Source: an uncultured Bacilli bacterium (GTDB lineage: Bacteria > Bacillota_I > Bacilli_A > RF39 > UBA660). From it: a stretch of 64,000 nucleotides of DNA. Numbering within the stretch: the stretch's first letter is position 1; each line of letters starts with the position of its first letter. Position numbers and translations under genes: made by a program. This document shows positions 7,718 through 60,437 of this stretch, in pieces. A model generated the notes under the pieces. It was not told the DNA's origin and did not search any database. It was given only the letters and a program-made list of their open reading frames with translations. The stretch spans positions 2,168-66,167 of the forward strand of contig CALVIE010000001.1 in NCBI GenBank assembly GCA_944329385.1, written 5' to 3'.

Positions 7718-9808
7718 TTATGGGTAAATTTCAAAGTATTTTTTTGAAACTCGGTTAGTTAACCTTTTATTTATGGCTGATTGATGGTTTGAACGACCGT
7801 TTGGTACCGAAATGTTTGGCGAAACAACTGTGAATGTGACTTCTGGGTTATCATAAGGAGCATAAGCCACAAAAGTTGTACTGATAGTTTCAGTGTCTAT
7901 TTTTCCATCTTTGTTGGTATCAACAAAACTTTGGCTGGTTCCTGTTTTTCCGGCTGGTTTATAAGTCTTATCAATATATCCAACGCCTAAGCCATAGCTT
8001 GTAACTGCTTCAAATCCTTCTTTTACTCTATCGATATATTTTGCTTCAGTATCAACTTTATTTAATTCTTTTTTGTTTTGGTCATATGTCGTTTTATCGT
8101 TATAAAGGCCTTTATAGAGATATGGCCTCATTCTAGTGCCGTTATTAGCAATAGTACTAATATATTGTGATAGTTGGATTGGGGTATAATTATCATACTG
8201 ACCTATTGAAAAATCTAATAATAATCCTGAGGTGGTGTTTGTTCCTTTTAAGCCAGTTGTTTCATTTGGAAGATCAATGCCAGTTTTGACACCTAAGCCA
8301 AACTGGGCGAAGGTATTTCTATATATGTTAAAGGCTTCTTTATCAATAACTAATGGTTTATTATATTTATAATTTCCTTTACCAACTTTAATTGCAGTAT
8401 AGTACTGATAGGTGTTTGAAGATTGAGCTAAAGCTGTGATGTCATTTAATCTACCAAGATATTTCCATGAACATTTTTCTGGAGTAGCAGCTATTTTGAC
8501 ACAATTATCGTATCTTACTTCGCCTATTTTTAAAGCACCGGTATTATATCCAACAATATGGCTAGCACCTTTGACGACTGATCCCATAACTGCTGTTGAC
8601 TGGGTAATTCCAGCGGTAAAATCTATGGTACTATAAGAACCATCATCATTTTGTTTTAATTGTTTTCCAGCCATAGCCAATATTTCACCTGTTTTAGGGT
8701 TAGTAACTACGACGAATGAGCCATTATAATATTCTGTGTTAGCTTCTTTTTTGGCATTTATAACTTCTTCGGTTAATATTTCTTCTAAGGCTTTTTGAAG
8801 TTCAATGTCAATTGTTAGGACAATGTCATTACCTCTTTTACCTTCTTCTAGGAGTTTATATGAGCCATCGTTCATGACTTGGTACTTATTTTTTTTACCT
8901 TTTAAAATATCTTCATACATATATTCTAGGTTACTAGTTCCTACTCTATCATCTAGACTATAACCTTTTTTTAAATATTCATCTTTGAGTTCGGCAGGGA
9001 TTCCACTTTTACTTGATGAAACGTTGCCCAAGATACTTTTAAAAACATTACCATAAGGATAGGTTCTTTCCCAGTCTAATTTAGTATTTATTCCTTTTAA
9101 TTCACTTAAGTTTTCTGAAACTAAAGCATATTCTTCGTCGGTGACGTTTTCATTTTTGATGGTTTTTTCGTCATATGAATAACCGGTATTCATAAGGGTA
9201 TATATATAAGCTGCTTTTTTGTCTAGTTCATTATATATTGCTAGTTCTTCTTCAGTTACTCTTTCAATTTTCAAATTATAAATTTCATCACTTGTGAGTT
9301 TTCTTTCATCTAATTTTTGCCATTCTTCATCAGTTATCTTTTTATTTGCTTCTTTTGGATGATTTTTTATCCAAAAGTTTTTGAAATCATAGTCATTTAA
9401 TTTTATTTCAAGGTTTATCATATTTGCAAGTTTATAGGCTGTTTTGATTTCTTCTTCGGTGGTTATGCCTGATGGCTTTTTATAGTATATTACTTTAGAG
9501 GGAATATTATCGACAATGAGTTTACCATTTCTATCATAAATTCTTCCTCTTGGAGCAGTTTCACCATAGATTACTGTTTTGGTAAGGTTTTCTAATTTTT
9601 TACTATATTTTTCTTTTCCAACCACTTGAATTAAAAATAGTGATGTGACTAGTATTAAAAGAGCTAAAACAATTAAAAATGTTAATATGTTATAACGTTT
9701 TTCTATTTCAATTTTAATGTCTTTATTTTCTTTATAAGAATTGAAATTATAGTTTGGTTTTCTTTGTTTTTTAGAAACTTTTAATGCTTTTGGTTTTTTC
9801 TTTTTCAA
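7718..9808 (-). CDS. class B penicillin-binding protein (PBP2B/SpoVD-like transpeptidase)
   Basis: N-terminal TM anchor, a PBP dimerisation region and a transpeptidase domain with the KTGT motif (PAGKTGTSQ); 696 aa. Confidence 0.8.
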   Translation of the reverse strand: MKKKKPKALKVSKKQRKPNYNFNSYKENKDIKIEIEKRYNILTFLIVLALLILVTSLFLIQVVGKEKYSKKLENLTKTVIYGETAPRGRIYDRNGKLIVDNIPSKVIYYKKPSGITTEEEIKTAYKLANMINLEIKLNDYDFKNFWIKNHPKEANKKITDEEWQKLDERKLTSDEIYNLKIERVTEEELAIYNELDKKAAYIYTLMNTGYSYDEKTIKNENVTDEEYALVSENLSELKGINTKLDWERTYPYGNVFKSILGNVSSSKSGIPAELKDEYLKKGYSLDDRVGTSNLEYMYEDILKGKKNKYQVMNDGSYKLLEEGKRGNDIVLTIDIELQKALEEILTEEVINAKKEANTEYYNGSFVVVTNPKTGEILAMAGKQLKQNDDGSYSTIDFTAGITQSTAVMGSVVKGASHIVGYNTGALKIGEVRYDNCVKIAATPEKCSWKYLGRLNDITALAQSSNTYQYYTAIKVGKGNYKYNKPLVIDKEAFNIYRNTFAQFGLGVKTGIDLPNETTGLKGTNTTSGLLLDFSIGQYDNYTPIQLSQYISTIANNGTRMRPYLYKGLYNDKTTYDQNKKELNKVDTEAKYIDRVKEGFEAVTSYGLGVGYIDKTYKPAGKTGTSQSFVDTNKDGKIDTETISTTFVAYAPYDNPEVTFTVVSPNISVPNGRSNHQSAINKRLTNRVSKKYFEIYP

Positions 9809-9859
9809 TTTTTGTCACCTCACTTTGTTTTAAAACATATTTTATTATAGGGGGAATTT

Positions 9860-10123
9860 ATGCATAAATTATTTATTGAAAGATATATTAAACAAATTAA
9901 GAAGGATGATATTTTAAAGTTTGGAATTCAAAATGATATTTATTTATCAAATAATCAGCTTGATATATTATACCACTATTTAAATGAGTTTTGGGAAGAT
10001 ATTTTGTATGGAGATAGGGAAAAAGTTTTTTTGGATATGAAAAAAAGGTTTGATGAAGATACTTTTTTTAAGATGAAAAATTTATTTGATGAGTATTTCG
10101 AGCGTTATAGAGATATTTTATAG
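9860..10123 (+). CDS. hypothetical small protein (87 aa)
   Basis: Open reading frame with an RBS (GGGGGAATTT ATG); no recognisable motif. Its 3' end overlaps the convergent nfo stop. Confidence 0.3.
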   Translation: MHKLFIERYIKQIKKDDILKFGIQNDIYLSNNQLDILYHYLNEFWEDILYGDREKVFLDMKKRFDEDTFFKMKNLFDEYFERYRDIL

Positions 10124-11028
10124 TAATTTTGAATATCTTTGATGAGGTTTTGATTAATTTTTTTATTTTTTATCATTTCTATTTCAAATTTATATGGTGG
10201 ATATGTTCTATCTTGACCATTATTTATACTTACGTAAGGAGTTTCTAATATTTTAGGGACTTTTTTTAATTTTTCGTTATATATTATTTTAATAAGATTT
10301 TCAAAGCCAATTGTTCCAAGGCCAATATTCTCATGGCGGTCTTTATGCGATGATTTAATGTTTTTACTATCGTTTATATGAATGCAGGCAATTTTATTTA
10401 TTCCAATTATTTGATCAAAGCTATCTAATAGTTCGTCAAAATTTGTTAGGTCATATCCGGCATCGTTTAGATGACAAGTGTCCAAACATACTTTTACTCT
10501 TTCTTTATTATTTATGCCGTTTATGATAGTTTTAATTTCTTCAAAGTTTTTTCCTAGTTCACTACCTTTTCCAGCCATAGTTTCTAAACAGATGATGGGG
10601 CCTTTTTTGTTTTCTAAAATAATATTTAAAGCGTTTATAATATTATTTAAACCTTTTTCAGTACCTAAGCCAACATGACTTCCTGGATGAAGGACAATTT
10701 TATTTATGCCTAGAATTTGAGCTCTTTGGAGTTCTTGTTTTAAAAAATTTATGGAGAAGTTATATTTGTTTTCATCTTTATTATTAGCTAAGTTTATAAT
10801 ATAAGGAGCGTGAATGATGACATTATTTATATCAATATTGTTTTCTTGCATAAGTTTTTTAGCTAAAGCTGTTTTTTCTTCATCGATTTTTGATCTTTTA
10901 GTGTTTTGAGGAGCACCAGTATAAAACATAAATGTGTTTGCATTATAGCTTAATGCTTCTTTAACACTTTTTAGTAAACCATCATTTTTGGTATAAGATA
11001 CATGTGAACCGATTATTAATTTTTCCAT
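10105..11028 (-). CDS. nfo: endonuclease IV (deoxyribonuclease IV)
   Basis: Motifs HAPYIINLA, HPGSH and CLDTCH, the metal-binding residues of the TIM-barrel Nfo family. Confidence 0.9.
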   Translation of the reverse strand: MEKLIIGSHVSYTKNDGLLKSVKEALSYNANTFMFYTGAPQNTKRSKIDEEKTALAKKLMQENNIDINNVIIHAPYIINLANNKDENKYNFSINFLKQELQRAQILGINKIVLHPGSHVGLGTEKGLNNIINALNIILENKKGPIICLETMAGKGSELGKNFEEIKTIINGINNKERVKVCLDTCHLNDAGYDLTNFDELLDSFDQIIGINKIACIHINDSKNIKSSHKDRHENIGLGTIGFENLIKIIYNEKLKKVPKILETPYVSINNGQDRTYPPYKFEIEMIKNKKINQNLIKDIQNYYKISL

Positions 11029-14863: not shown

Positions 14864-15808
14864 TTATGATTCAATGATAAATGGATTTGTTTTACTACCA
14901 TATCCACTTAACTGTAATCCTGATTTTATGTGAACTACTGGGAAAGATGTTTCATAGGGATTATTACTCATCCTTACAGTTGTTAATGATCCTAAGTAAA
15001 AAACCCAATGATAATCATTGTTATCTTTATAATGATTTAGCAGCCATCCAAGACTGGGAATACCCCAACCTTTATTTGACACATAATTTATCCAAGTAGT
15101 ACCACCACAATTTGAACCGTAATAACTTACATTATTTGGAAAATTAGCGCAGGCTAATCTGGTATTTGTTCTAAGGAATTCTGTAACAGTGAGTATCGCT
15201 ACTTTTCCGTTCCATTTACTTGTTTTTTCGCTTTGAACAGCCAATTGCAAATTTGTTTCTGTTTTAGTACCTAAATTACCTACATTGAAATTTCTAGCAA
15301 CTATTAAATTTTTTGCTGTAGTAGAAAGATTATTATAATATGTTCCATTTAAATATGTATTTACGTTTGAGTTAGTCCAAGTGGTGTTTCCCCAAGAAGT
15401 AGTATTAGTACTACTTGATGCTCCAGTTTCAGTTAAATTTATAATTTTCATTGTTCCGTCTTTTTCTATTGATAGTATTCGCCATTCTTCATTGTTAAAT
15501 GTAATATAATTATCTACATAATTGCCTCTATAAATATATCTACCTTCTTCATATTCATCCGCATATAGTCCAGATCCAGTTGTAACTACTAAATCTTTTA
15601 ACTTAGAAGAAGTTATAGTTGAACTATCAGCTTTTTTGTAAAGTTCATCTATAGCATCTTGAACATTGGTTGCATTAAGTCCACTTGCTTTATTATCATA
15701 TGTTGTTTGATTTGACGGAAAATATGTTACAGCCGATATGCTTACTGTTCCAACAATTATTGCTGTTAATAGGCATAAAAAGCATCTATTTTTTAAAATT
15801 TTTTTCAT
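14864..15808 (-). CDS. secreted paralog-family protein P1 (divergent member; DUF6273-like core?)
   Basis: Signal peptide/TM, then the conserved block VTYFPSNQTTYDNKASGLNATNVQDAIDELY shared with 39399..40328, 44795..45741, 59484..60437 and the remnant at 30304..30606. The middle is N/T/S/W/Y-rich, and the C-terminus GSKTNPFIIES is related to the GDGSxNPY end of the other copies. Confidence 0.6.
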   Translation of the reverse strand: MKKILKNRCFLCLLTAIIVGTVSISAVTYFPSNQTTYDNKASGLNATNVQDAIDELYKKADSSTITSSKLKDLVVTTGSGLYADEYEEGRYIYRGNYVDNYITFNNEEWRILSIEKDGTMKIINLTETGASSSTNTTSWGNTTWTNSNVNTYLNGTYYNNLSTTAKNLIVARNFNVGNLGTKTETNLQLAVQSEKTSKWNGKVAILTVTEFLRTNTRLACANFPNNVSYYGSNCGGTTWINYVSNKGWGIPSLGWLLNHYKDNNDYHWVFYLGSLTTVRMSNNPYETSFPVVHIKSGLQLSGYGSKTNPFIIES

Positions 15809-25282: not shown

Positions 25283-25430
25283 ATTTTATCTAGTTTTTTT
25301 GTTAAAAAAAAGGAAATTTCCAACTTTCGCCGTATGTTAATATATGAAAGGAGGAATTTCCATGTTTAATTATATAACTGAACAAATTAAGTTTATTATT
25401 TATGTTATTTGGGAATATTTTGATTATAAA

Positions 25431-28816: not shown

Positions 28817-29767
28817 TTATGATTTTATATTTTGAATTGTTTTTTCATCTAAACCTGTTAATCTAGAAATATCAGATATTTTCATTTTTTCTTTTAACAT
28901 ATTTTTAGCAATTTCTAATGCTTTTACTTTTGATCCTTGTTCAATTCCCTGTTCAATTCCAAGTTCTCTTCCTTGTTCAATTCCAAGTTCTCTTCCTTGT
29001 TCTAGGCCTTCTTTTACTGCTTCATCATGATCAATTTTTTTCATCCATTCATCCATTTTTTCTTTGTCATATAAACCTATAATGTGTTCATCTTCATTTA
29101 AATCTTCAATTATTTTCGCCATATTTTCTAAGTCTTCATCTCCTTTAGATATTTCTTTTAACTGTTTTTTACTTGTTAATTGAAACATTACTAATACTTT
29201 CTCAATTTTTGAAAGTTCATTATTATTATAATACTTATCTAAAGGATTTGCCATATTTATATGGATTCTTTTAAAATTTTCTTCATCCGTAAATTTTCCT
29301 GTATCATCTTTCATACTAAATTCAATGAATAGTCGGTCATCAAATCTATTTATAACATTAAAGTTTAACTGTAATATTTCACTTTTATCCATTTTATTTC
29401 CTGATAAATATCTATCGTAGGCAATTTTATGATGATATACATTATTTTTGGCAATCATACTTGCTTTTGCAGTTTTATTGGCTTCAATATTTATTATTGT
29501 TCCTTCTACTTTTACTATAATATCAGTTATCTTTTTTCTTTCTTTATAATTTTCAAGTGGTAATTCTGTATTAGCAAACACTAGATTTTCAAAAATATAT
29601 CCTGGTGAATAAACAGTGACATGACTTATGATCAAAGATAGTAATTTTCTAAATTTTGGATTTTGAACAATGGATTTAAATATTGGATCAAACATTGATG
29701 TTATGAGTGTATCTGGATTTTTCTTTGTTTCAGGTTTAATACTTGTTTTTGTCATATACTCCTCCAT
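28817..29767 (-). CDS. Rpn-family recombination-promoting nuclease / putative transposase (PD-(D/E)XK, Transposase_31/YhgA-like), copy 1
   Basis: N-terminal DPIFKSIVQNP...DIIVKVEGTIINIEANK core plus C-terminal EQG repeats (LEQGRELGIEQGRELGIEQGIEQG) and the tail IAKNMLKEKMKISDISRLTGL. The tail is nearly identical to that of 43657..44556. Confidence 0.7.
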   Translation of the reverse strand: MEEYMTKTSIKPETKKNPDTLITSMFDPIFKSIVQNPKFRKLLSLIISHVTVYSPGYIFENLVFANTELPLENYKERKKITDIIVKVEGTIINIEANKTAKASMIAKNNVYHHKIAYDRYLSGNKMDKSEILQLNFNVINRFDDRLFIEFSMKDDTGKFTDEENFKRIHINMANPLDKYYNNNELSKIEKVLVMFQLTSKKQLKEISKGDEDLENMAKIIEDLNEDEHIIGLYDKEKMDEWMKKIDHDEAVKEGLEQGRELGIEQGRELGIEQGIEQGSKVKALEIAKNMLKEKMKISDISRLTGLDEKTIQNIKS

Positions 29768-29866
29768 TCTAAAAAGGTAGAAAAACTACCTTCTATATAA
29801 AATATACGACAAAAATAACGAATTTCCTTTTTTTGATGAATATTTTTTAACAATGAACAAAATAAT

Positions 29867-30185
29867 TTAATCAAAATTTTTATTAATTAAATCATCTATT
29901 TGTACTTCATAAATTTTAGATAAAATTATTAATTTTTCTAAAGTAATATTTTTTGAGGTGTAATTAGGGTTTTCTAATCTATTATAATGTCTTCTTGATA
30001 TACCTAATAGTGAGGATATATTATCTAAACTATAGGGATTATCTATTTTATTATTTAGATTTTTATATTCATTATAATGGTTTAACCTTATTTTTTTTTA
30101 GATTAGATGCGAGTATTTTTTCAAAATTACTGTTTTTTACATTTTCAGCTATTTCTTCCATTTGATATGCTTGTTTGATATGCAT
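29867..30185 (-). pseudogene. HTH (XRE-like) DNA-binding gene interrupted by a frameshift at an A9 homopolymer (possible phase-variable or sequencing-error site)
   Basis: ATG with SD AAAGAGGTG; frame 1 stops shortly after the A9 run (T9 on + at 30091-30099). With A8 the frame continues as ...NLKKIRLNHYNEYKNLNNKIDNPYSLDNISSLLGISRRHYNRLENPNYTSKNITLEKLIILSKIYEVQIDDLINKNFD, an HTH. Confidence 0.5.
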
Positions 30186-30303
30186 ATAAACACCTCTTTT
30201 TATAATTATCACATTTGAATTGTCAAAACGTGAGACATTTTGGGTGCTTTTTTTAGAAAATTATGATATACGAAAATGTAATAAAATAACGAAAGGAAGG
30301 AAA

Positions 30304-30606
30304 ATGGATATTTAGAAAAGTGGTTAGTTTTTTAAAAAGAATATTTTAGGTATTATTATTGGTGGAGTAATATTTGGAAGTTTAGGTGTTTGTGCGGCCA
30401 CCTATTTTCCTAGTAATAATGTAACATACGAAAACAAAAATAGTGGTTTAAAAAGTACTGATGTCCAAGGGGCGATAGATGAACTTTATACAGCTTGCTC
30501 AGAGCTAGCGACTCCGCCAACTCTAGGTGATACAATACTAGAAGATGTGCCAATAGTATCGTCAGGCGATGGTTCTCAAGAGAATCCATTTAATATTTCT
30601 TTATGA
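30304..30606 (+). pseudogene. degenerate remnant of the secreted paralog family, with N- and C-terminal conserved blocks fused and in-frame stops near the start
   Basis: ATG GAT ATT TAG ... then GIIIGGVIFGSLGVCAATYFPSNNVTYENKNSGLKSTDVQGAIDELYTACSELATPPTLGDTILEDVPIVSSGDGSQENPFNISL*. A 67-nt block at 30424-30489 is about 99% identical to P2 at 40151-40217. Confidence 0.5.
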
Positions 30607-39398: not shown

Positions 39399-40328
39399 TT
39401 ATTCAATGCGATAAGGATTATTTTGCGAGCCATCGCCCCCAGTGATTTTAATTTTACTAGACAAATATACGGATGGACGGACTGCAACCGTTTCATTATT
39501 GAGAACATAAGTGCCGCCACCAGCAGAAGTAATAATGAACCCGTTGTAATTGATACCACGACGAGGTGATAACGTCCACCAGCTACTAATATTATTACTT
39601 TGCATCCATGTTGTATTCATACAATTCCTATTTTCTTCATTTGATGCAAATGTTCTACAGCTGCTATTACTATTACTTCTTATATATTCACTCATTGTTA
39701 TTAAGGCAACTTTTCCGTTCCACTTACTACTATTTTCATATGTTATTTGTGAACTCATACTTGATTCAGCATAATTAATAGCTCCTATACTCCAATTTTT
39801 TGAAACAATCTGTCCTTGGGCTGTCTGATTCAAAGTTTCTGTTAAGTAACTTCCATTTAAATACGTGTTCAAATCGGATGGGCGTGCCCAGTTATTTGAG
39901 CCATTGGCTCCTCCTCCTTCATCCCACGCCATATTTCCTATACTTGCTTCTCTCATTATTTTTATGGTTTTATCATTTTCAATAGATACTATTCTCCATA
40001 TCTCATTATTAAATATTATATAATTATTTGGGTTTGTTCCTCTATAAAAATATCTATCTTCATATTCATCTTTATATAAACCATCACCAGATGACACTAT
40101 ATCCACTTTGTCAAGTATTGCTTCTCCTCCTGTTTTAGGTAAACATACATTATAAAGTTCATCTATCGCGCCTTGGACATCAGTACTTTTTAAACCACTA
40201 TTTTTGTTTTCGTATGTTACTAAATTACTATCAAAATATGTTACTGCTGATACTACTGATATACATATTAAAAAACTAAGTGTTAGTCCTATCATATATT
40301 TTTTTATAAATTCTTTTATTTTTTTCAT
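39399..40328 (-). CDS. secreted paralog-family protein P2 (best intact copy)
   Basis: MKKIKEFIKKYMIGLTLSFLICISVVSA signal, then VTYFDSNLVTYENKNSGLKSTDVQGAIDELY; core with FYRGTNPNNYIIFNNEIWRIVSIENDKTIKIM, KWNGKVALITMSEYIRSNSN and SWWTLSPRRG; C-terminus VRPSVYLSSKIKITGGDGSQNNPYRIE. Confidence 0.6.
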   Translation of the reverse strand: MKKIKEFIKKYMIGLTLSFLICISVVSAVTYFDSNLVTYENKNSGLKSTDVQGAIDELYNVCLPKTGGEAILDKVDIVSSGDGLYKDEYEDRYFYRGTNPNNYIIFNNEIWRIVSIENDKTIKIMREASIGNMAWDEGGGANGSNNWARPSDLNTYLNGSYLTETLNQTAQGQIVSKNWSIGAINYAESSMSSQITYENSSKWNGKVALITMSEYIRSNSNSSCRTFASNEENRNCMNTTWMQSNNISSWWTLSPRRGINYNGFIITSAGGGTYVLNNETVAVRPSVYLSSKIKITGGDGSQNNPYRIE

Positions 40329-40447: not shown

Positions 40448-40630
40448 ATGAAGGAGTTTAAACTACCTAAGGTTGAAGATGAACAATCAGTTTTAAAAAC
40501 TATTAGAATTAAATTTACAACTTTAAAAAAGATAGAAGATTTATCTAAGGAAAGTCATTTATCGGTTAATAGAATTATTAATGAATGTATTGAGTTTGCA
40601 CTTAATAATTTAGACATAAAAAAGGATTAA
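40448..40630 (+). CDS. small ribbon-helix-helix (CopG/Arc-like) DNA-binding protein
   Basis: 60 aa; a beta-strand-like KTIRIKF followed by two helices (LKKIEDLSKESHLSVNRIINECIEFAL). It is divergent from P2, with AT-rich repeats (GTATTACA x2) in the intergenic region. Confidence 0.4.
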   Translation: MKEFKLPKVEDEQSVLKTIRIKFTTLKKIEDLSKESHLSVNRIINECIEFALNNLDIKKD

Positions 40631-40676: not shown

Positions 40677-41150
40677 TTAATCAAGTTCATCTTCACCAAT
40701 AATAGTTAAATCATCATCTACATCTACCGCATCATCTAAATCTGGATCATCTAACTGTGAATCATCATCCATATCATGCATATCTTCAGAAGCCATATCG
40801 TCTAATTCATCATCTAATTCTTCTTCGGTTTCCGTTAAGTCTTCTTCATCTTCTGTATCATCTTCGAGATCTAATTTAACTGAATGTCTATCTCTTAAGT
40901 CCCAGGTTGCATCATCTAGCAAAATAAATGTTTTATCAGTTGTTAGTGATGTATAAAAATCCCCTATTTTATTTGCATAATCTTCTTCTGATAATTCTAG
41001 TAAGTTACATATTTTTTTAAATATTTCTGGAGTGTTTAAACTCTTTTTTTCTTCTTTTAAAATCATAGCAGCTAAATCGGTGTAGGAATATAGTTCTAAT
41101 TCATCTTTAGACATTTTTGATAATTTCATATTATACCTCCTAATTAACAT
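40677..41150 (-). CDS. rpoE: DNA-directed RNA polymerase subunit delta
   Basis: HARE-HTH N-terminal domain (LELYSYTDLAAMIL...FYTSLTTDKTFILLDDATWDLRD) plus a long poly-acidic C-terminal tail. The likely start is MKLSK. Confidence 0.8.
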   Translation of the reverse strand: MLIRRYNMKLSKMSKDELELYSYTDLAAMILKEEKKSLNTPEIFKKICNLLELSEEDYANKIGDFYTSLTTDKTFILLDDATWDLRDRHSVKLDLEDDTEDEEDLTETEEELDDELDDMASEDMHDMDDDSQLDDPDLDDAVDVDDDLTIIGEDELD

Positions 41151-41185
41151 CTGATTTAATCTTAGAACATTGTACCATATTCTAT

Positions 41186-41563
41186 CTATGTGTCAAGGGT
41201 AAATTTTAAATTATATGTAAAGGTGTCAATATAGCTTTCATTTATCTTTAATTTATAAGTTATTTCTAATTCATTATTTTTTTGAATTAATTTGAGCGTT
41301 TTGGTTTCTACATTTAAAGTTCCATATTTAGTTATATATAATCCTTTTTGTTTTATACCTTCTTTTAATTTTATTTTTAAATTATAGTCTGAATTTCTTT
41401 CAATGATAATCACATTATCTAAGGTTATTTTTGTTTGGATATTTTTATCATTATAAATAATTTGATTATTTCTTTTAATTCCTTTACCTTTAAATTTATG
41501 AACACTATTTTTAGTTTTTAAAACAGCTTCTATGTTTATTTTACTCATTTTTTTACCTCGCAC
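41186..41563 (-). CDS. DUF1934-like small beta-rich protein (commonly adjacent to rpoE)
   Basis: 125 aa; the call rests on its position upstream of rpoE and general composition. Confidence 0.45.
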   Translation of the reverse strand: MRGKKMSKINIEAVLKTKNSVHKFKGKGIKRNNQIIYNDKNIQTKITLDNVIIIERNSDYNLKIKLKEGIKQKGLYITKYGTLNVETKTLKLIQKNNELEITYKLKINESYIDTFTYNLKFTLDT

Positions 41564-41646
41564 AAAGATTATAACACATATACTGAATTTTTACTTATAT
41601 TTTTGAAAATTTTTCCAATAATAATTTTAGAAAGTGACGTGGTCTA

Positions 41647-43611
41647 ATGAAAAAGAAAAGGTCTAGAAAATGGATAATTATTATTTTAGGAATTATTTTC
41701 TTTTTTATTGCTATTTACTTTGGTATATATTTATATGCGAAAGTTCAGCCAAAATTACCAATTAGTGGAGCAAATGGTTATCATTTATATGACATTAATG
41801 GTGAGATTTATACAGCTGGTTCTAATGAAAATGTAGATTTAAAAGATATTTCTCGGCATTTAATTAATGCGACTATTGCGGTAGAGGATAAAAATTTTTA
41901 TAAACATCACGGTTTTGATTTTTTTAGAATTATTAAGGCAATGATGATTAATTTAAAATCTGGAGAAAATTTACAAGGGGCATCCACTATTACTCAACAA
42001 TATTCTAAAAATTTATTTTTAGATTTTGATAAGACTTGGGATAGAAAAATCAAAGAGGCTTGGATTACAATTAGGTTAGAAGCACATTACAGTAAGGATG
42101 ATATTTTAGAAGGATATTTAAATACAATTAATTATGGTGGAATATTTGGAATCGAAAATGCTTCTAAGTATTATTTTAATAAAAGTTCAAAAAAATTAAC
42201 TTTAGCTGAGGCAAGTATGCTTGCAGGAATTCCTAAAAACCCGAGTAAATATTCTCCTTTAACTAATGAAAAAGAAGCTAAAAAAAGGCAAAAAATTATT
42301 TTGGATGCGATGGTTAAAAATGGATATATTAGTCAAAGTGAAGCTGATGGTGCATATAATACTAAGCTTAATTATGAAAAAGGTACGGATGAGGAAAATT
42401 TAAAAATGATGATGTATTACCAAGATGCTGTAATGGACGAACTTTCAATGATTGATACTATTCCTTCTTCATTTTTGGAAACTGGTGGTCTTAAAATTTA
42501 TACTAATTTGGATATGAATGCTCAAAAAGCTCTAGAAGATAGTGCGAATAAAAATATAACTAATGAAGAAATTCAAATGGCAGGAGTGGTCATGGATCCT
42601 AAAAATGGGAAAGTTTTAGCTTTAGCTGGTGGCAGGGATTATAATAAAAGTCAATACAATAGAGCAACCAAAGCTAAAAGACAAGTTGGTTCAACAATTA
42701 AACCATTTTTGTACTATTCAGCTTTAGAAAATGGTTTTACTCCGTCTACAACTTTTACTAGTGAAAAAACAACTTTTAGTTTTTCAGGAAATAAAACTTA
42801 TACTCCTAAAAATTATAATGATGAGTATGCGAATGGTCCGATTAGTTTAGCGGCTGCTATTAGCTATTCAGATAATATTTATGCGGTTAAGACACATCTG
42901 TTTTTAGGTGATGATGCCTTACCAGATATTTTAAAGCGAGTTGGAATTAACGAAAATGTTAATACGTTGCCTTCACTTGCTTTAGGAGCCGAAGAAATTA
43001 ATATGATGGACATGATGGCCGCATATAGTGCTTTAGCAAATGAAGGTTATAAAGTTGAGCCTTATTTTATAAGTAAAGTTACAGATATGGATGATAATAT
43101 TTTATATGAATATAAACCTAAATTAGAAAATGTTTTAAATAAAAATACAGTTTATGTTTTAAATGAGCTTTTAACGACTACTTATGCGAAAGAGTTTCAA
43201 AGTTATAATACTCCTACTTGTCTTAGTATTGCTCCTAAAATGACACATAAATATGCATTAAAATCTGGAACCACTAATACTGATAATTTGATTTTTGGAT
43301 ATAATAAAGATGTAGTTGTGGGCATGTGGACAGGATATGATGATAATAAGGATGTATCTAGTAAAGACAGTTCTAATTTAAAAAATGCTTGGGTGGATGT
43401 GATGGAAACTTATTTGAAAGATAAGGATGATTCTAAACTTTGGTATGAAACACCTAAAAATGTTGTTGGAGTAGCTATAGATCCGGTAAGTGGTAAAATT
43501 GCCGATAATAATTCTAAAGCAAAGATTTTATATTATATTAAGGGAACTGAACCAACCGATAATAAAAGTTCTTTAGACGATAGTATTCCTACTGTCAAAT
43601 TAGAGGAATAA
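41647..43611 (+). CDS. class A penicillin-binding protein (bifunctional glycosyltransferase/transpeptidase, PBP1A-like)
   Basis: GT51 motifs EDKNFYKHHGFD and STITQQ; transpeptidase motifs STIKP, SYSDN and KSGTT. Confidence 0.85.
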   Translation: MKKKRSRKWIIIILGIIFFFIAIYFGIYLYAKVQPKLPISGANGYHLYDINGEIYTAGSNENVDLKDISRHLINATIAVEDKNFYKHHGFDFFRIIKAMMINLKSGENLQGASTITQQYSKNLFLDFDKTWDRKIKEAWITIRLEAHYSKDDILEGYLNTINYGGIFGIENASKYYFNKSSKKLTLAEASMLAGIPKNPSKYSPLTNEKEAKKRQKIILDAMVKNGYISQSEADGAYNTKLNYEKGTDEENLKMMMYYQDAVMDELSMIDTIPSSFLETGGLKIYTNLDMNAQKALEDSANKNITNEEIQMAGVVMDPKNGKVLALAGGRDYNKSQYNRATKAKRQVGSTIKPFLYYSALENGFTPSTTFTSEKTTFSFSGNKTYTPKNYNDEYANGPISLAAAISYSDNIYAVKTHLFLGDDALPDILKRVGINENVNTLPSLALGAEEINMMDMMAAYSALANEGYKVEPYFISKVTDMDDNILYEYKPKLENVLNKNTVYVLNELLTTTYAKEFQSYNTPTCLSIAPKMTHKYALKSGTTNTDNLIFGYNKDVVVGMWTGYDDNKDVSSKDSSNLKNAWVDVMETYLKDKDDSKLWYETPKNVVGVAIDPVSGKIADNNSKAKILYYIKGTEPTDNKSSLDDSIPTVKLEE

Positions 43612-43656
43612 AAATTGATTTTTTATTTCAAATGTTTATTAACAAAAAAACTACTT

Positions 43657-44556
43657 TTAATCAGTAGTTTTTAATTTTTGAATATCTGTTTCAGTTAGAT
43701 TTGTTAATCTAGAAATAGTTTTAATATCCATTTTCTCTTTAAGCATGTTTTTAGCTATTTGAATATTTCTTTCATTGATACCTTGCTTAACTCCTTGTTC
43801 AAAACCTTCTTGTTTGGCACCTTCCATTTCATTTTGTTTAACTAAAGCGTCCATCTTATCCTTTTGCCATTCATGTAATATAAATTCATCATTATTCATC
43901 TTTATCATAGTCTCCATTAATCTATTAACCTCTTTTTCATCAAGTATCTGCCTAGATAACTCATATAGTTCACTAAATGTTTGTGCTATAAGCATCGTAT
44001 ACCATATAATTTCTTTTGTTTTAACACCTTCATTATAATATAGTTTACTATAAAGTTCAAGGCTCTTTAAAAATATCCTTTTATTACTAGGATAGACTTT
44101 TTGAGTGAGTAATCCATATGGGACAATGATGTCTTCTAGATCTTCTTCAAATGGACTTATATTAAGATTAAGCTGAATATTGTTTATTTCTTTTATACTT
44201 TTTCCTTTTTCAAATATTATGGTCGCTATTTTATCTAAATAATTAAAATTTCTTTCCATTACATACTCAAATTTACTTCTATTCATCTCTATATCAATAA
44301 AGATTTTATCATTAATAGATACAATAATATCCACCATTTTTTTACGTTCATTTTTATTAGTTATAGGATGTTCACTATCCAAAATTCTAATTTTATCATC
44401 TTTAGATATTTCCATTTTTAAACTGGCATTTAATAAATCTACAAGTAAGTTTAAATTTAATTTAAAAACGTTTTTAAAAACAAGGTCATAAGATAAAGGT
44501 ATCATATCTAATTTTTCATCTAACTTTAATAAATATTCTTTAGTTATTGTTTCCAT
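43657..44556 (-). CDS. Rpn-family recombination-promoting nuclease / putative transposase (PD-(D/E)XK), copy 2
   Basis: DLVFKNVFKLNLNLL...DIIVSINDKIFIDIEMNRSKF core; C-terminal EGAKQEGFEQGVKQG repeats and the tail IAKNMLKEKMDIKTISRLTNL, nearly identical to copy 1. Confidence 0.7.
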   Translation of the reverse strand: METITKEYLLKLDEKLDMIPLSYDLVFKNVFKLNLNLLVDLLNASLKMEISKDDKIRILDSEHPITNKNERKKMVDIIVSINDKIFIDIEMNRSKFEYVMERNFNYLDKIATIIFEKGKSIKEINNIQLNLNISPFEEDLEDIIVPYGLLTQKVYPSNKRIFLKSLELYSKLYYNEGVKTKEIIWYTMLIAQTFSELYELSRQILDEKEVNRLMETMIKMNNDEFILHEWQKDKMDALVKQNEMEGAKQEGFEQGVKQGINERNIQIAKNMLKEKMDIKTISRLTNLTETDIQKLKTTD

Positions 44557-44717
44557 ATATCTCCTTTCTTTGCCCCTTTATATATAAACATACGGCGAAA
44601 ATAATGATTTTCCTTTTTTTATATGAAAAAAATTTAAAAATCTAGTATGTTTTTAATTTACACACTAGATTTTATACACCCTCGAATCGGTATTCTATAT
44701 TGTGGAAAAAGCGACCC

Positions 44718-44752
44718 CACACCTCTAAATGAGGTGTGAGGGCTTTTACAAA
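44718..44752 (-). terminator. rho-independent terminator downstream of P3
   Basis: 10-bp stem CCCACACCTC/GAGGTGTGGG with loop TAAAT. On the minus-strand RNA it is followed by CGCUUUUUCC. Confidence 0.55.
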
Positions 44753-44794: not shown

Positions 44795-45741
44795 TTATCC
44801 TAAAGTATATGGGCTTGATGAACTTCCATTTCCTCCTGTAATTTGGACACTAGACGATAGATAGACGGCCGGACGGACCGCACCGGTCGTATTGTTAGCG
44901 TAGACGTAGTTGACGTAGCCGTACGAAAGCACGCCGAACACGTAGTTAGAGTCACCGGCAAGAGGCGACAAAGTCCACCAATAGTCATTTATATACATCC
45001 AGCTGCTATTTTGACATGTACTATAATTATCATTTATTTTACTAAATGTTCCACAGCTACTTTGATTACTATTACTTCTTAGATATTCACTCATTGTTAT
45101 TAGGGCTACTTTTCCATTCCATGTTGTTGCTTTCTCATCATCTATTTGATCTCCCAAGTTATTATTATCCCATGTTGCTGAACCTATATTCCAATTTTTT
45201 GCAACAATTTGGCTTTGGGCTGTCGCATTTAATGTTCCTGTCAAATAACTTCCATTTAAATATGTATTCAAATCGGCTGGACGTTTCCAGTTATTGGAAC
45301 CATAGGTTCCTCCTCCTGCATCCCATGCTATATCCCCTATACTTGCATTCCTCATTATTTTGATTGTTTTATCTGGCTCTATTGACACTATTCTCCATAC
45401 CTCATTATTAAATGTTATATACTTATTTACATTGGCTCCTCTATAAAAATATCTTCCTTCTTCATAAGTATCTTCGTATAATCCGTCACCTGATGTTACT
45501 ATATCTACACTGTCTAAGATAGTATCCCCAGGAGCTGGGACTTTTGTACATTCTTCGTATAGTTCATCTATGGCTTCTTGGACATTTTTTGAAGCAAGAC
45601 CACTTGATTTATTTTCATAACTAACATCTTTTGAATTAAATGTTACTGTGGCATATACGCCTATGCTGCCAAATAGTATTAGTCCTATGACAAAACTTAT
45701 TAGATTTTTTTCACATAATATTTCATTTTTTCTTTCTTCAT
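44795..45741 (-). pseudogene. secreted paralog-family protein P3, interrupted by a frameshift in an A7 tract within the signal-peptide region (candidate phase-variable OFF state)
   Basis: ATG AAG AAA GAA AAA ATG AAA TAT TAT GTG AAA AAA ATC TAA. With A8 the frame continues as MKKEKMKYYVKKNLISFVIGLILFGSIGVYATVTFNSKDVSYENKSSGLASKNVQEAIDELYEE...FYRGANVNKYITFNNEVWRIVSIEPDKTIKIM... into the listed 44795..45388 ORF, which ends with YWWTLSPLAGD...VRPAVYLSSSVQITGGNGSSSSPYTLG. Confidence 0.5.
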
Positions 45742-45851: not shown

Positions 45852-46088
45852 ATGGATGATAATTTAAGCAATTATTACTGCAATTTAGTTAAGAAAAATT
45901 TAAAGAGATTAAAAAATGAAAGAAATTGGAGCATTACTAAAATGGCTTTAGTTTTAGGACTTAGTGAAAGTTATTTAGGACATTTACTTAGTTTAAAATC
46001 GCCTAAAACTCCATCTATTCAATTACTTGGGGCAATTTGTGGAAGAGCAAATGTTCAAATTACTTATTTTTTTGAAAACGAAAAATAG
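45852..46088 (+). CDS. HTH (XRE-like) DNA-binding protein
   Basis: WSITKMALVLGLSESYLGHLLSLKSP is a helix-turn-helix; the gene is divergent from P3 across an intergenic region containing a 29-bp perfect palindrome. Confidence 0.5.
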   Translation: MDDNLSNYYCNLVKKNLKRLKNERNWSITKMALVLGLSESYLGHLLSLKSPKTPSIQLLGAICGRANVQITYFFENEK

Positions 46089-46100
46089 ACCATTTGGGGT

Positions 46101-46811
46101 CTATTTTATTTTAAGAACAAGTTTTTTTACATCTTCATCTTTGACTGATTCGGTTAAGGACATTCCTTTTAAACTTTTATAAAATCCACACATAGTGTTT
46201 GTTTCAATGTTTGAACGCTGTTTTAAAAATTCGGCAAAGCTGTCATAGTCTTGTGAGTTAATAAAATCATAGTATTCATCAGTATCTTCTTTAGTAATAA
46301 TTACTGGAGCTAGTCCTTCTTTCCAAAGATTAGCTGTTAAAATTAGTTTCGCACTTCTTTTATTACCATCTTCTAGCGGATGAATACGCATATATTTAAT
46401 GTTAAACATGGCTTCTCTTAGGAATGGATCTATTTCGTTCCAAGTATGATAATATTGATAAAACAACATATTTAAGGCGTTTGGTATTTGGTTTGGAGCA
46501 ATTGGATCAAATGTGGCTTTAGTACCAGCTGTGACACCAATACGTCTTAAGCCTTTTGGCACTTCATAACTTTCGTTAATAATATTGCCTACTGTTTTAA
46601 TATTTCCTAAGTTTAAATAATCAGTGTCACAAATCAGATAAGAAAGTGCTTCTAGGATATTTAACATTAAATGAGTACGTTGTTCTGGGTTTAAATCTTC
46701 TAATTCAGCTACACTATAGACAAAACGTTCTACAAAGAAATTAGTATATCTTTCTACTATAGATTGATCTGTTATTTGTGGATTTTCATTTATGATTAGT
46801 TCTTCTGACAT
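46101..46811 (-). CDS. Fic/Doc (Fido) family protein
   Basis: HPLEDGNKRSAKL matches the Fic active-site motif HPFx(D/E)GNGR (HPxxDGNxR). Confidence 0.8.
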   Translation of the reverse strand: MSEELIINENPQITDQSIVERYTNFFVERFVYSVAELEDLNPEQRTHLMLNILEALSYLICDTDYLNLGNIKTVGNIINESYEVPKGLRRIGVTAGTKATFDPIAPNQIPNALNMLFYQYYHTWNEIDPFLREAMFNIKYMRIHPLEDGNKRSAKLILTANLWKEGLAPVIITKEDTDEYYDFINSQDYDSFAEFLKQRSNIETNTMCGFYKSLKGMSLTESVKDEDVKKLVLKIK

Positions 46812-59483: not shown

Positions 59484-60437
59484 TTATTTAGAACTTAATT
59501 GATACGGATTATCCTGGCTTCCATCTCCTCCGGTAATTTGGACTGATGATGAAAGTGTTACTACAGGTCGAACACCATAGCTACTTGAATAATTAGAATT
59601 AATGTGTCCGGAACTATCCACACGGTATGCATAACTTCCACTCATGATTGACAGTGTCCACCATGAATCATTTATATACATCCAACTAGTACTTTGACAC
59701 TTAGTATAATTATTATTATTTATATAAAAGGTTCCACAGTTACTTTTATCACTATTACTTCTTATATATTCCGAAACTGTTGCTAAAGCAACTTTCCCAT
59801 TCCACTTTTTATTGTTTTCAACATTTATTTGATTTTCTAAATCTGTATTAAAATTTCCTACAGGTCCTATACTATAATCGCTTGTAATTATTTGATTTTG
59901 GGCTACGCTAGTTAAATTATTATAATATGTTCCATTTAAATATGTATTTAATGTGGCTGGGCGAGTCCAATTATTATTATTTGATGAATCCCATTCCATG
60001 TTTTCTATACTTTCATATTTCATTATCTTGATACTTCCATCTGAATTTATAGATATAATTCTCCAACCAGCAATTTCTCCATTAAAGGTTACATAATTAT
60101 TTGGATTTGCTCCTTTATATGTATATTTTCCATTTTCATATTCATCTTCATATAAGCCATTTCCTTCTGTTACTATATCTATCTCGTCTAATATTGCATC
60201 TCCACCTGTTTTAGGCGGAAAACATACATTATAAAGTTCATCTATGGCTGTTTGAATATTATTTGATGTCATTCCTGTTGTTTCATTACTATATGTTACA
60301 TTTTTACTATCAAAATATGTTATAGCTGATACTGCTGATATACATATTAAGAAACTAAATGGTGTAGGATAAAGGGAATTAAAGTTACAATGGAAAAGAA
60401 AAAAAGTTAGAAATAGATGTTCATTATGGAACATCAA
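59484..60437 (-). CDS. secreted paralog-family protein P4 (altered N-terminus, in an operon with upstream membrane proteins)
   Basis: ...SFLICISAVSAITYFDSKNVTYSNETTGMTSNNIQTAIDELY; core with KYTYKGANPNNYVTFNGEIAGWRIISINSDGSIKIM, KWNGKVALATVSEYIRSNSD and SWWTLSIMSGS; C-terminus VRPVVTLSSSVQITGGDGSQDNPYQL. The N-terminus lacks the MKK n-region of P2 despite near-identical DNA from TTAATATGTATATCAG onward. Confidence 0.6.
   Translation of the reverse strand: MMFHNEHLFLTFFLFHCNFNSLYPTPFSFLICISAVSAITYFDSKNVTYSNETTGMTSNNIQTAIDELYNVCFPPKTGGDAILDEIDIVTEGNGLYEDEYENGKYTYKGANPNNYVTFNGEIAGWRIISINSDGSIKIMKYESIENMEWDSSNNNNWTRPATLNTYLNGTYYNNLTSVAQNQIITSDYSIGPVGNFNTDLENQINVENNKKWNGKVALATVSEYIRSNSDKSNCGTFYINNNNYTKCQSTSWMYINDSWWTLSIMSGSYAYRVDSSGHINSNYSSSYGVRPVVTLSSSVQITGGDGSQDNPYQLSSK

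Follow-up and report, generated by a model that had tools for sequence, protein, structure and literature searches.

Two Rpn-family nuclease genes beside DUF6273 modules in the genome of an uncultured gut Bacilli bacterium

Genes and features at the Rpn loci

We analysed a stretch of 64,000 nucleotides (nt) from an uncultured Bacilli bacterium (GenBank assembly GCA_944329385.1, contig CALVIE010000001.1, positions 2,168 to 66,167), hereafter the window, with regard to two genes of the Rpn nuclease family, Rpn1 and Rpn2, and to the variable family of DUF6273 proteins that is found beside both. The window has a G+C content of ~28%, and housekeeping and sporulation genes form its backbone (polA, polC, RNase R, prmC, prfA, PBP1, serS and SpoIIP). 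Among public sequences it stands closest to metagenome-assembled genomes of 1.3-1.5 Mb labelled "uncultured Bacilli bacterium", Candidatus Coprosoma and Firmicutes CAG:822. The two genes and the elements belonging to them are as follows.

28817-29767, minus strand: Rpn1, a divergent Rpn-family gene of 316 amino acids (aa) as listed, in the polA-polC spacer and syntenic in relatives
28934-29002, minus strand: dodecamer (4-aa) tandem repeat in Rpn1, from the repeat scan, coding for (G-I/L-E-Q)n
29801-29830, minus strand: Rpn1 copy of a 30-nt promoter-like motif, upstream of Rpn1
43657-44556, minus strand: Rpn2, an Rpn-family nuclease gene of 299 aa with an N-terminal PD-(D/E)XK domain, member of a multi-copy subfamily
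43660-43854, minus strand: RpnS-like C-terminal region of Rpn2 (residues 235-299), made up of the repeat zone and a three-helix HTH_Rpn_C domain
~43777-43824, minus strand: degenerate 4-aa repeat zone of Rpn2, inside the RpnS-like region
44587-44616, minus strand: the 30-nt promoter-like motif AAAGGAAA..TTTCGCCGTATGTT upstream of Rpn2, at the upstream edge of the repeated Rpn unit
25309-25338, plus strand: third, orphan copy of the motif, after serS, followed by a ribosome-binding site and a 27-codon open reading frame (ORF)

The Rpn proteins

Rpn2 matches PF12784 (PDDEXK_2) at 37.4 bits, above the curated cut-off of 27.4, and narrowly passes the curated cut-off of 52.1 for the NCBIfam model TIGR01784, [quoted passage not shown], with 52.8 bits in a full-length match (residues 24-295 against model positions 3-273). 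Rpn1 also aligns with TIGR01784 over its full length, at 31.7 bits and thus under the cut-off, and has no nuclease match in Pfam, where matches were listed at E<=0.1; it shares 32% identity with Rpn2 across 259 aa (E=2e-22). The original prediction, that both are Rpn-like PD-(D/E)XK proteins, is borne out by these matches and by the catalytic residues described below. Its proposed homes for them, PF04754 (Transposase_31) and DUF4351, had to be given up, since neither model matches Rpn1 or Rpn2 at E<=0.1 and the sister family PF12784 is found instead.

Residues D11, D63, E82, Q84 and R94 are required for the function of Escherichia coli RpnA (PMC5350276). In a MAFFT alignment of 20 homologous sequences with E. 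coli RpnA, their counterparts are D24/D76/E90/N92/R102 in Rpn2 and D27/D82/E95/N97/K107 in Rpn1, so that the residues of the PD-(D/E)XK catalytic core, on which the earlier reading of both genes depended, are present in each. The acidic columns are invariant across the 20 homologues, N replaces Q84 throughout, and the R94 column is K solely in Rpn1. Because hhalign, run with the family profile against the single E. coli RpnA sequence, aligned the C-terminus alone, this residue mapping rests on the MAFFT alignment. An AlphaFold (AF2) model of Rpn2 (predicted local distance difference test, pLDDT, 74; predicted template modelling score, pTM, 0.64) has the order helix, three strands, helix, strand, as expected. 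Both genes are under purifying selection, with ratios of nonsynonymous to synonymous substitution (dN/dS) of 0.12-0.37 overall, 0.12-0.23 for Rpn1 and 0.26-0.37 for Rpn2 against homologues.

Sequence searches also identified an RpnS-type three-helix C-terminal domain homologous to that of RpnA-S, preceded by a hypervariable four-residue repeat, and homologues bear precomputed matches to PF12784 and PF27070 (HTH_Rpn_C). The EQG-type repeats that had been noted in the two proteins are real. In Rpn1 they form a tandem array that can be read as 5.8 copies of a 12-nt unit or as 2.4 copies of a 24-nt unit with 97% matches; across Rpn1 orthologues the copy number of (GLEQ)n ranges from 0 to ~10, and repeat number varies between Rpn2 homologues as well. 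The nearly identical last 25 residues, seen earlier as a bond between the two copies, are likewise a genuine block (IAKNMLKEKM..ISRLT.L), but one that is not peculiar to them: it is kept in all 20 aligned homologues and matches E. coli RpnA-S. Since the block is family-wide, it is no sign of a recent exchange between Rpn1 and Rpn2, and such an exchange is ruled out as its source, the genes being 32% identical overall. Repeats and conserved tail are known Rpn-wide features and form no special link between Rpn1 and Rpn2.

In the recent literature, Rpn proteins are described as toxins with an intragenic antitoxin and a role in phage defence. The 4-aa repeat, located in the long helix of the RpnS domain, is there a specificity determinant that tunes which short antitoxin neutralises which long toxic form (PMC10400941). 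Rpn1 and Rpn2 are new members of the known Rpn kind and are best read as nuclease units of toxin and intragenic antitoxin, the fold and residues being shown here and the mechanism carried over from PMC10400941.

Several observations touch on where these proteins may begin. The likely true start of Rpn1, judged from the orthologue alignment, is the ATG at 29755 after GGAGGAG, giving 312 aa. In L002 (10001-10927; surveyed loci and contigs bear L numbers) and in the homologues P0011, P0016, P0017 and P0061, the called N-terminal extension "MFIYKGGKERRYM" is a translated promoter motif, and the real start is the ATG following AGGAGA. Within Rpn2, AAAGGA precedes M235, which makes this codon a candidate internal start. 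TATAAT hexamers arise from conserved Tyr-Asn codons (TAT AAT, in a Y-Y-N motif) at equivalent positions of Rpn2 (44032-44037) and Rpn1 (29225-29230), both on the minus strand, and -35-like hexamers lie 17-18 nt upstream of both; they could drive transcription of a short C-terminal product from within the gene, or may just reflect AT-rich codon usage. Promoter scans gave fewer matches than in shuffled sequence and, because shuffled sequence matched more often, are given no weight.

Truncated Rpn copies that retain the C-terminal part, at internal positions and not at contig ends, occur in L075 (~9740-10141, the polA-polC site of the closest relative), L039 (10001-10498), L066 (5736-5918) and L067 (10001-10326); they resemble the stand-alone short Rpn genes known in E. 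coli. Two Rpn paralogs on OZ007022.1 (L009 9992-10894 and L011 9992-10882), compared by eye in printed translations, have nearly identical nuclease domains; their repeat numbers and C-terminal helical domains are markedly unlike, a pattern to be expected if antitoxin cross-talk between paralogs has to be avoided.

The Rpn unit and its edges

The 30-nt motif upstream of both Rpn genes had no match in 100 shuffles. Similarity of the Rpn2 region to other Rpn2 copies and to contig L001 stops at ~44632-44640, and similarity from copy to copy spans the stop codon to ~80 nt upstream of the start. The Rpn2 unit was found again at 87-92% identity in unrelated contexts, its subfamily being multi-copy; genomes of 1.3-1.5 Mb each have at least 4 to 7 Rpn loci, and tandem Rpn arrays are present in L012 and L029. 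The repeat scan found no inverted or direct repeats flanking Rpn1 or Rpn2, of the kind that would mark an insertion sequence. The edges of the Rpn unit are set solely by loss of similarity between copies, and the unit behaves like a single-gene cassette. At the point equivalent to the orphan copy of the motif, L054 (14827-15975) and L075 have an insert containing an IS605-type TnpB.

The DUF6273 family and the neighbours of the Rpn genes

The variable family comprises proteins of ~310 aa with an N-terminal membrane anchor, a conserved motif (Y-x-N-x-x-S-G-L...V-Q-x-A-I-D-E-L-Y) and a DUF6273 domain, which is C-type-lectin-like and in gut phages is often targeted by diversity-generating retroelements (PMC10743442; bioRxiv 10.1101/2024.10.15.618418). 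Five family loci lie in the window, two of which adjoin an Rpn gene. They and the other neighbours of the Rpn genes are listed here.

14864-15808: family locus
29867-30212, minus strand: XRE-type helix-turn-helix (HTH) gene beside Rpn1 (HTH_3, 22.7 bits, E=1e-4), part of an inserted family module
30304-30606, plus strand: family remnant beside Rpn1, matching family residues 26-89
30400-30490, plus strand: short-tract conversion patch in the remnant, 92% identical over 91 nt to F2 at 40151-40241, inverted
39399-40328: family locus F2, not adjacent to an Rpn gene
44715-44741, minus strand: hairpin resembling an intrinsic terminator, after P3, separating P3 from the Rpn2 unit
44795-45741, minus strand: P3, family gene (DUF6273) next upstream of Rpn2, in the same orientation
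45852-46088, plus strand: XRE-type HTH gene in divergent orientation to P3, of the kind that usually accompanies a family gene
46101-46811, minus strand: Fic-domain gene (Pfam Fic), completing the accessory islet that adjoins Rpn2
59484-60437: family locus F4, not adjacent to an Rpn gene

At least four of the five family loci have as partner a small gene that lies upstream in divergent orientation, and three of these partners match XRE-type HTH models; the partner of F2 (40448-40630) had no Pfam match. About 5 of the 6 accessory islets in the window contain a family gene.

Both Rpn genes have the neighbours ascribed to them in the original prediction. Rpn2 lies immediately downstream of P3, whose reading frame opens with the ATG at 45741 and is lost past an A7 tract (45705-45711), where A8 would restore it. 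Rpn1 lies beside an HTH gene whose frame is shifted within an A9 tract (read as T9 on the plus strand, 30091-30099) and beside the family remnant, which retains the anchor at its N-terminus, the conserved motif and the tail at its C-terminus, has a disrupted start region, and has lost the whole lectin domain between two short repeats coding for GDG. The Fic protein next to P3 matches two families in PADLOC, the candidate defence family PDC-S04 (E=4.6e-20) and SoFic (E=3.6e-11), and the islet of Rpn2 for this reason resembles a small defence islet.

A diversity-generating retroelement was ruled out as the driver of family variation in the window: there was no reverse transcriptase among the 19 window ORFs scanned and no duplicate resembling a template repeat in the window.

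Co-location of Rpn and family genes in related genomes

One genome per species was scanned with the Rpn alignment, which gave 72 loci, and exact look-ups of homologues added three more distinct Rpn loci; exact-sequence look-ups of the Rpn1 and Rpn2 proteins and of the 100%-identical P0001 returned no contig on record. Co-location was then assessed for 74 non-redundant Rpn loci of related uncultured Bacilli. Rpn contigs frequently break within the Rpn gene. The density of family genes is 0.156 per kb up to 1 kb from Rpn versus 0.022 per kb at 1-10 kb, a ~7-fold difference that corresponds to 19 observed family genes within 1 kb against 2.7 expected. An adjacent family gene is present at 18 of the 74 Rpn loci, which collapse to 9 independent genomic contexts, and ~75% of the loci have no family neighbour. 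As it rests on a ~7-fold density and on 9 independent contexts, we regard the co-location as real, and the Rpn genes of relatives are not placed at random with respect to the family, as had been proposed.

The arrangement of the neighbours is varied. In 14 of 19 cases the family gene follows just downstream of Rpn in the same orientation, immediately or across an HTH gene; three are upstream and co-oriented, as are P3 and Rpn2, and the remaining two are divergent with an HTH gene between, as at Rpn1. These three geometries are not the fixed linkage of a recombination enzyme to variable genes, with donors feeding an expression site. Junction sequences consist of an Rpn terminator followed by an independent family promoter. 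Preferential decay of family copies near Rpn was ruled out, the defective fraction being 6 of 18 for proximal and 5 of 18 for distal copies. IS605-type TnpB recurs as an Rpn neighbour in four loci. In a reverse survey of 80 metagenomic loci of distant family relatives (25-48% identity) we found one Rpn-like ORF, and none adjacent to the family.

Conserved Rpn sites at polA-polC and whiA

Two conserved sites indicate the order in which the genes arrived. The arrangement polA-Rpn1-polC is collinear, at ~80% nucleotide identity, in L053, L054 and L056, where the spacer between polC and Rpn1 is ~170-190 bp; in the window, ~790 bp with the HTH pseudogene and the remnant stand in place of part of this spacer. 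L075, the closest relative, has a truncated Rpn1. In the whiA-Rpn slot, Rpn is present at 9 of 9 loci, and what follows downstream is nothing (L029), a family module (L012, L047 and L055) or an IS605 TnpB (L025). On account of these two sites, we regard Rpn as the long-term resident and the family modules as later additions that join other mobile DNA. The suggestion that the two modules move together is contradicted here: movement as one unit was ruled out at polA-polC and at whiA, where Rpn is constant and the family module variable.

Traces of recombination

Gene conversion takes place among the family paralogs. Within the patch shared by the remnant and the 5' part of F2, 71 of 72 nt are identical in the core, the two copies lying 9.66 kb apart, and F2 on either side of the patch is F4-like, the mark that short-tract gene conversion leaves. 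Between F2 and P3, long blocks of 81-93% identity are interrupted by segments of ~50%. One conversion patch involving the remnant was found. The same 91-nt inverted repeat (30400-30490/40151-40241) brackets polC, RNase R, prmC and prfA, and it could mediate inversion of this block of essential genes.

Contig L001 is 99.5% identical to the window over 40677-44632. At ~76 nt upstream of where Rpn2 starts, it passes into an unrelated pnp gene; over the part that the two have in common, divergence in the Rpn gene is about six-fold that of its flank. This pattern would fit dispersed Rpn copies acting as recombination substrates, with an assembly chimera through the Rpn repeat as the alternative. 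The same contig has an extra 304-aa family gene (L001 6350-7264) between the equivalents of the F2 partner (40448-40630) and of the gene at 40677-41150, with 96.7-99.5% identity to the window across the shared stretch outside the extra gene. The extra gene shows strain-level gain or loss of a cassette with no Rpn gene nearby.

Interpretation of the association

The reading we prefer, with somewhat better than even confidence, is that Rpn1 and Rpn2 are ordinary Rpn toxin/antitoxin genes with which the DUF6273 family shares insertion-tolerant hot spots, and that there is no Rpn-run machine for diversification. Both proteins are predicted to be functional PD-(D/E)XK DNA endonucleases fused to an RpnS-type helical domain with a hypervariable repeat. 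By homology with the E. coli and Clostridioides difficile proteins, each gene would be a self-contained unit of toxin and intragenic antitoxin with a phage-defence or selfish role, in which the long form would act as the DNA-cutting toxin and a short C-terminal product, translated from an internal start, would counteract its cognate long form only, with repeat number setting the specificity of the antitoxin. Rpn1 would be an old, vertically inherited occupant of the polA-polC spacer. The DUF6273 modules, each a gene with a divergent HTH regulator, would be separate cassettes with promoters and terminators of their own, which probably landed secondarily in insertion-tolerant intergenic spacers, as IS605 elements do; dispersed Rpn repeats possibly aid such landing as recombination substrates. 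The co-location would then reflect shared hot spots, the family modules being separate cassettes that landed secondarily. Once Rpn is confined to islets, its adjacency to the family in the window is also unsurprising, as ~5 of 6 islets hold a family gene.

Several points weigh against this reading. The enrichment within 1 kb is strong, with a Poisson p of 1e-10 on raw counts and of ~0.002 with only the numerator de-duplicated, and the family (11) and its HTH partner (8) are together the commonest immediate neighbours of Rpn, at 19 of 122 slots; a specific link is for these reasons retained as a possibility. As regards permissive sites per genome, the hot-spot reading, though the best available, is qualitative only. 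On the side of the proteins, the third residue of the catalytic motif is N, neither Q nor K (ExN), PADLOC 2.0 gave no match to the Rpn1 or Rpn2 proteins, and the candidates for an RpnS start and promoter are weak Shine-Dalgarno-like and -10-like matches.

The interpretation given in the original prediction was that Rpn nucleases shuffle the family. In its fuller form, they would act mainly near their own genes and break DNA there, and RecA-independent or homologous repair would recruit modules and drive conversion and exchange among DUF6273 genes with remnants as donors. We consider this unlikely, although several findings favour it indirectly: overexpression of Rpn in E. coli increases RecA-independent recombination (PMC5350276), the ~7-fold enrichment recurs in 9 contexts, new DNA was acquired directly beside a resident Rpn at two conserved sites, a strain-level break in synteny falls exactly at the upstream edge of the Rpn2 unit, the 71/72-nt patch is common to the Rpn1-side remnant and the intact F2, and N-terminal family fragments adjoin Rpn also in L009, L047, L050 and L062. 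Against it, mosaics also link F2, F4 and P3, though F2 and F4 are not adjacent to Rpn; the extra gene of L001 is a family indel without Rpn; copies proximal to Rpn are no more often defective than distal ones; about three quarters of Rpn loci lack a family neighbour; and IS605 elements occupy the same spots, so that the effect extends beyond the family. The gene conversion, which nothing ties to Rpn, is explained by ordinary homologous recombination without it, and the L001 break could be an assembly chimera. What stands of the shuffling interpretation is the non-random co-location and the conversion within the family, and the varied geometry, the residence of Rpn and the equal decay argue against a dedicated system. 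Still less probable is a version in which the Rpn nucleases act preferentially in cis and their flanks serve as landing pads or exchange points for phase-variable lectin-like modules, truncated copies being the conversion donors.

Retention is another way in which neighbours might gather. An Rpn gene acting as an addiction module would penalise its own deletion, and under deletion bias the neighbouring non-essential DNA, decayed family copies included, would survive longer. Both Rpn-adjacent family copies in the window are defective and yet kept, Rpn genes are long-lived at fixed sites, and their toxin-antitoxin behaviour is documented (PMC10400941). The equal defective fractions near and far from Rpn (6/18 and 5/18) and the truncation of Rpn1 in L075, where the locus was not protected, nevertheless make this a long shot, and it would require particular relative stabilities of the proteins. 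That the adjacency is mere coincidence, due to the high copy number of the family, is the least credible of the explanations: the presence of five family loci within 64 kb, spread over almost all accessory islets, and the position of only two of them beside Rpn would suit it, but the survey count is about seven times the chance expectation, and this holds at p ~0.002 even on the 9 contexts.

Comparison with known systems

The closest likeness is to RpnA-E of E. coli and to Rpn of C. difficile (PMC10400941, PMC5350276), with which the window genes share the nuclease, the long helix with variable 4-aa repeats and the three-helix C-terminal domain, the latter being homologous to RpnA-S, and the catalytic D, D, E and R positions are kept. 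Both also form single-gene units that lack terminal repeats, occur in tandem arrays and are present many times in a genome. They differ in that the N-terminal domain of Rpn2 belongs to PF12784 and not to PF04754, the profile alignment to RpnA being confined to the C-terminus, in the replacement of Q by N in the catalytic motif, and in the host, an uncultured gut Bacilli with a small genome; the internal start, toxicity and defence function of the window genes are predicted. The "PD-(D/E)XK nuclease family transposase" proteins of Firmicutes and spirochaetes (TIGR01784/PF12784) resemble Rpn2, which exceeds both cut-offs, and have the same multi-copy, transposase-like distribution. Rpn1, in contrast, falls under both cut-offs, and inverted repeats or target duplications were not seen in the window.

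Pseudogene donors feed antigenic variation in Neisseria pilE/pilS, Borrelia vlsE and Mycoplasma MgPar. The window resembles these systems in having a multi-copy surface-protein family with truncated copies and at least one short tract converted between a remnant and an intact copy. Unlike them, it offers no array of silent cassettes serving a single expression locus; most copies have a promoter and regulator of their own, only one clear conversion patch involves a remnant, and a dedicated recombinase is not demonstrated. The receptor-binding proteins of gut phages that are targeted by diversity-generating retroelements (PMC10743442; bioRxiv 10.1101/2024.10.15.618418) share the DUF6273 domain, whereas the window copies are chromosomal, membrane-anchored paralogs paired with HTH regulators, with no reverse transcriptase in the 19 ORFs.

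The role of Rpn proteins is debated between promotion of recombination and toxin-antitoxin defence. As accessory DNA has repeatedly gathered beside long-fixed Rpn genes, this lineage is a naturally occurring data set in which to ask whether Rpn genes give rise to recombination hot spots or simply mark them. A causal link between Rpn and the lectin-like genes would assign Rpn a definite function in the cell and provide a mechanism of surface variation in poorly known gut bacteria; action in cis, if true, would amount to a new nuclease-driven system of surface variation and a physiological role for the "recombination-promoting" activity. For the present, the yield is mainly a correct annotation and a statistically real association.

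Homopolymer tracts and further observations

Both gene disruptions beside the Rpn genes, in P3 (A7) and in the HTH gene (A9), are single-base homopolymer frameshifts. Such tracts are candidate phase-variation switches for the lectin-like family, or else homopolymer sequencing errors. At related loci, a poly-T tract of 7 to 17 T lies between the ATTACTTG and GTGATATCTT elements of a conserved family promoter (L009 ~11000, L011 ~10960, L018 ~2010, L039, L059 and L073). An Rfam scan of 24000-47000 gave no match at the gathering threshold. Proteins with prepilin-type (type IV pilin-like) N-termini adjoin Rpn-family pairs in L009 (8082-9860) and L011 (8217-8660); one prepilin-type protein has 592 aa with internally repeated segments and a C-terminal Y-D-N-x-x-x-G-L...A-I-D motif as in the lectin family.

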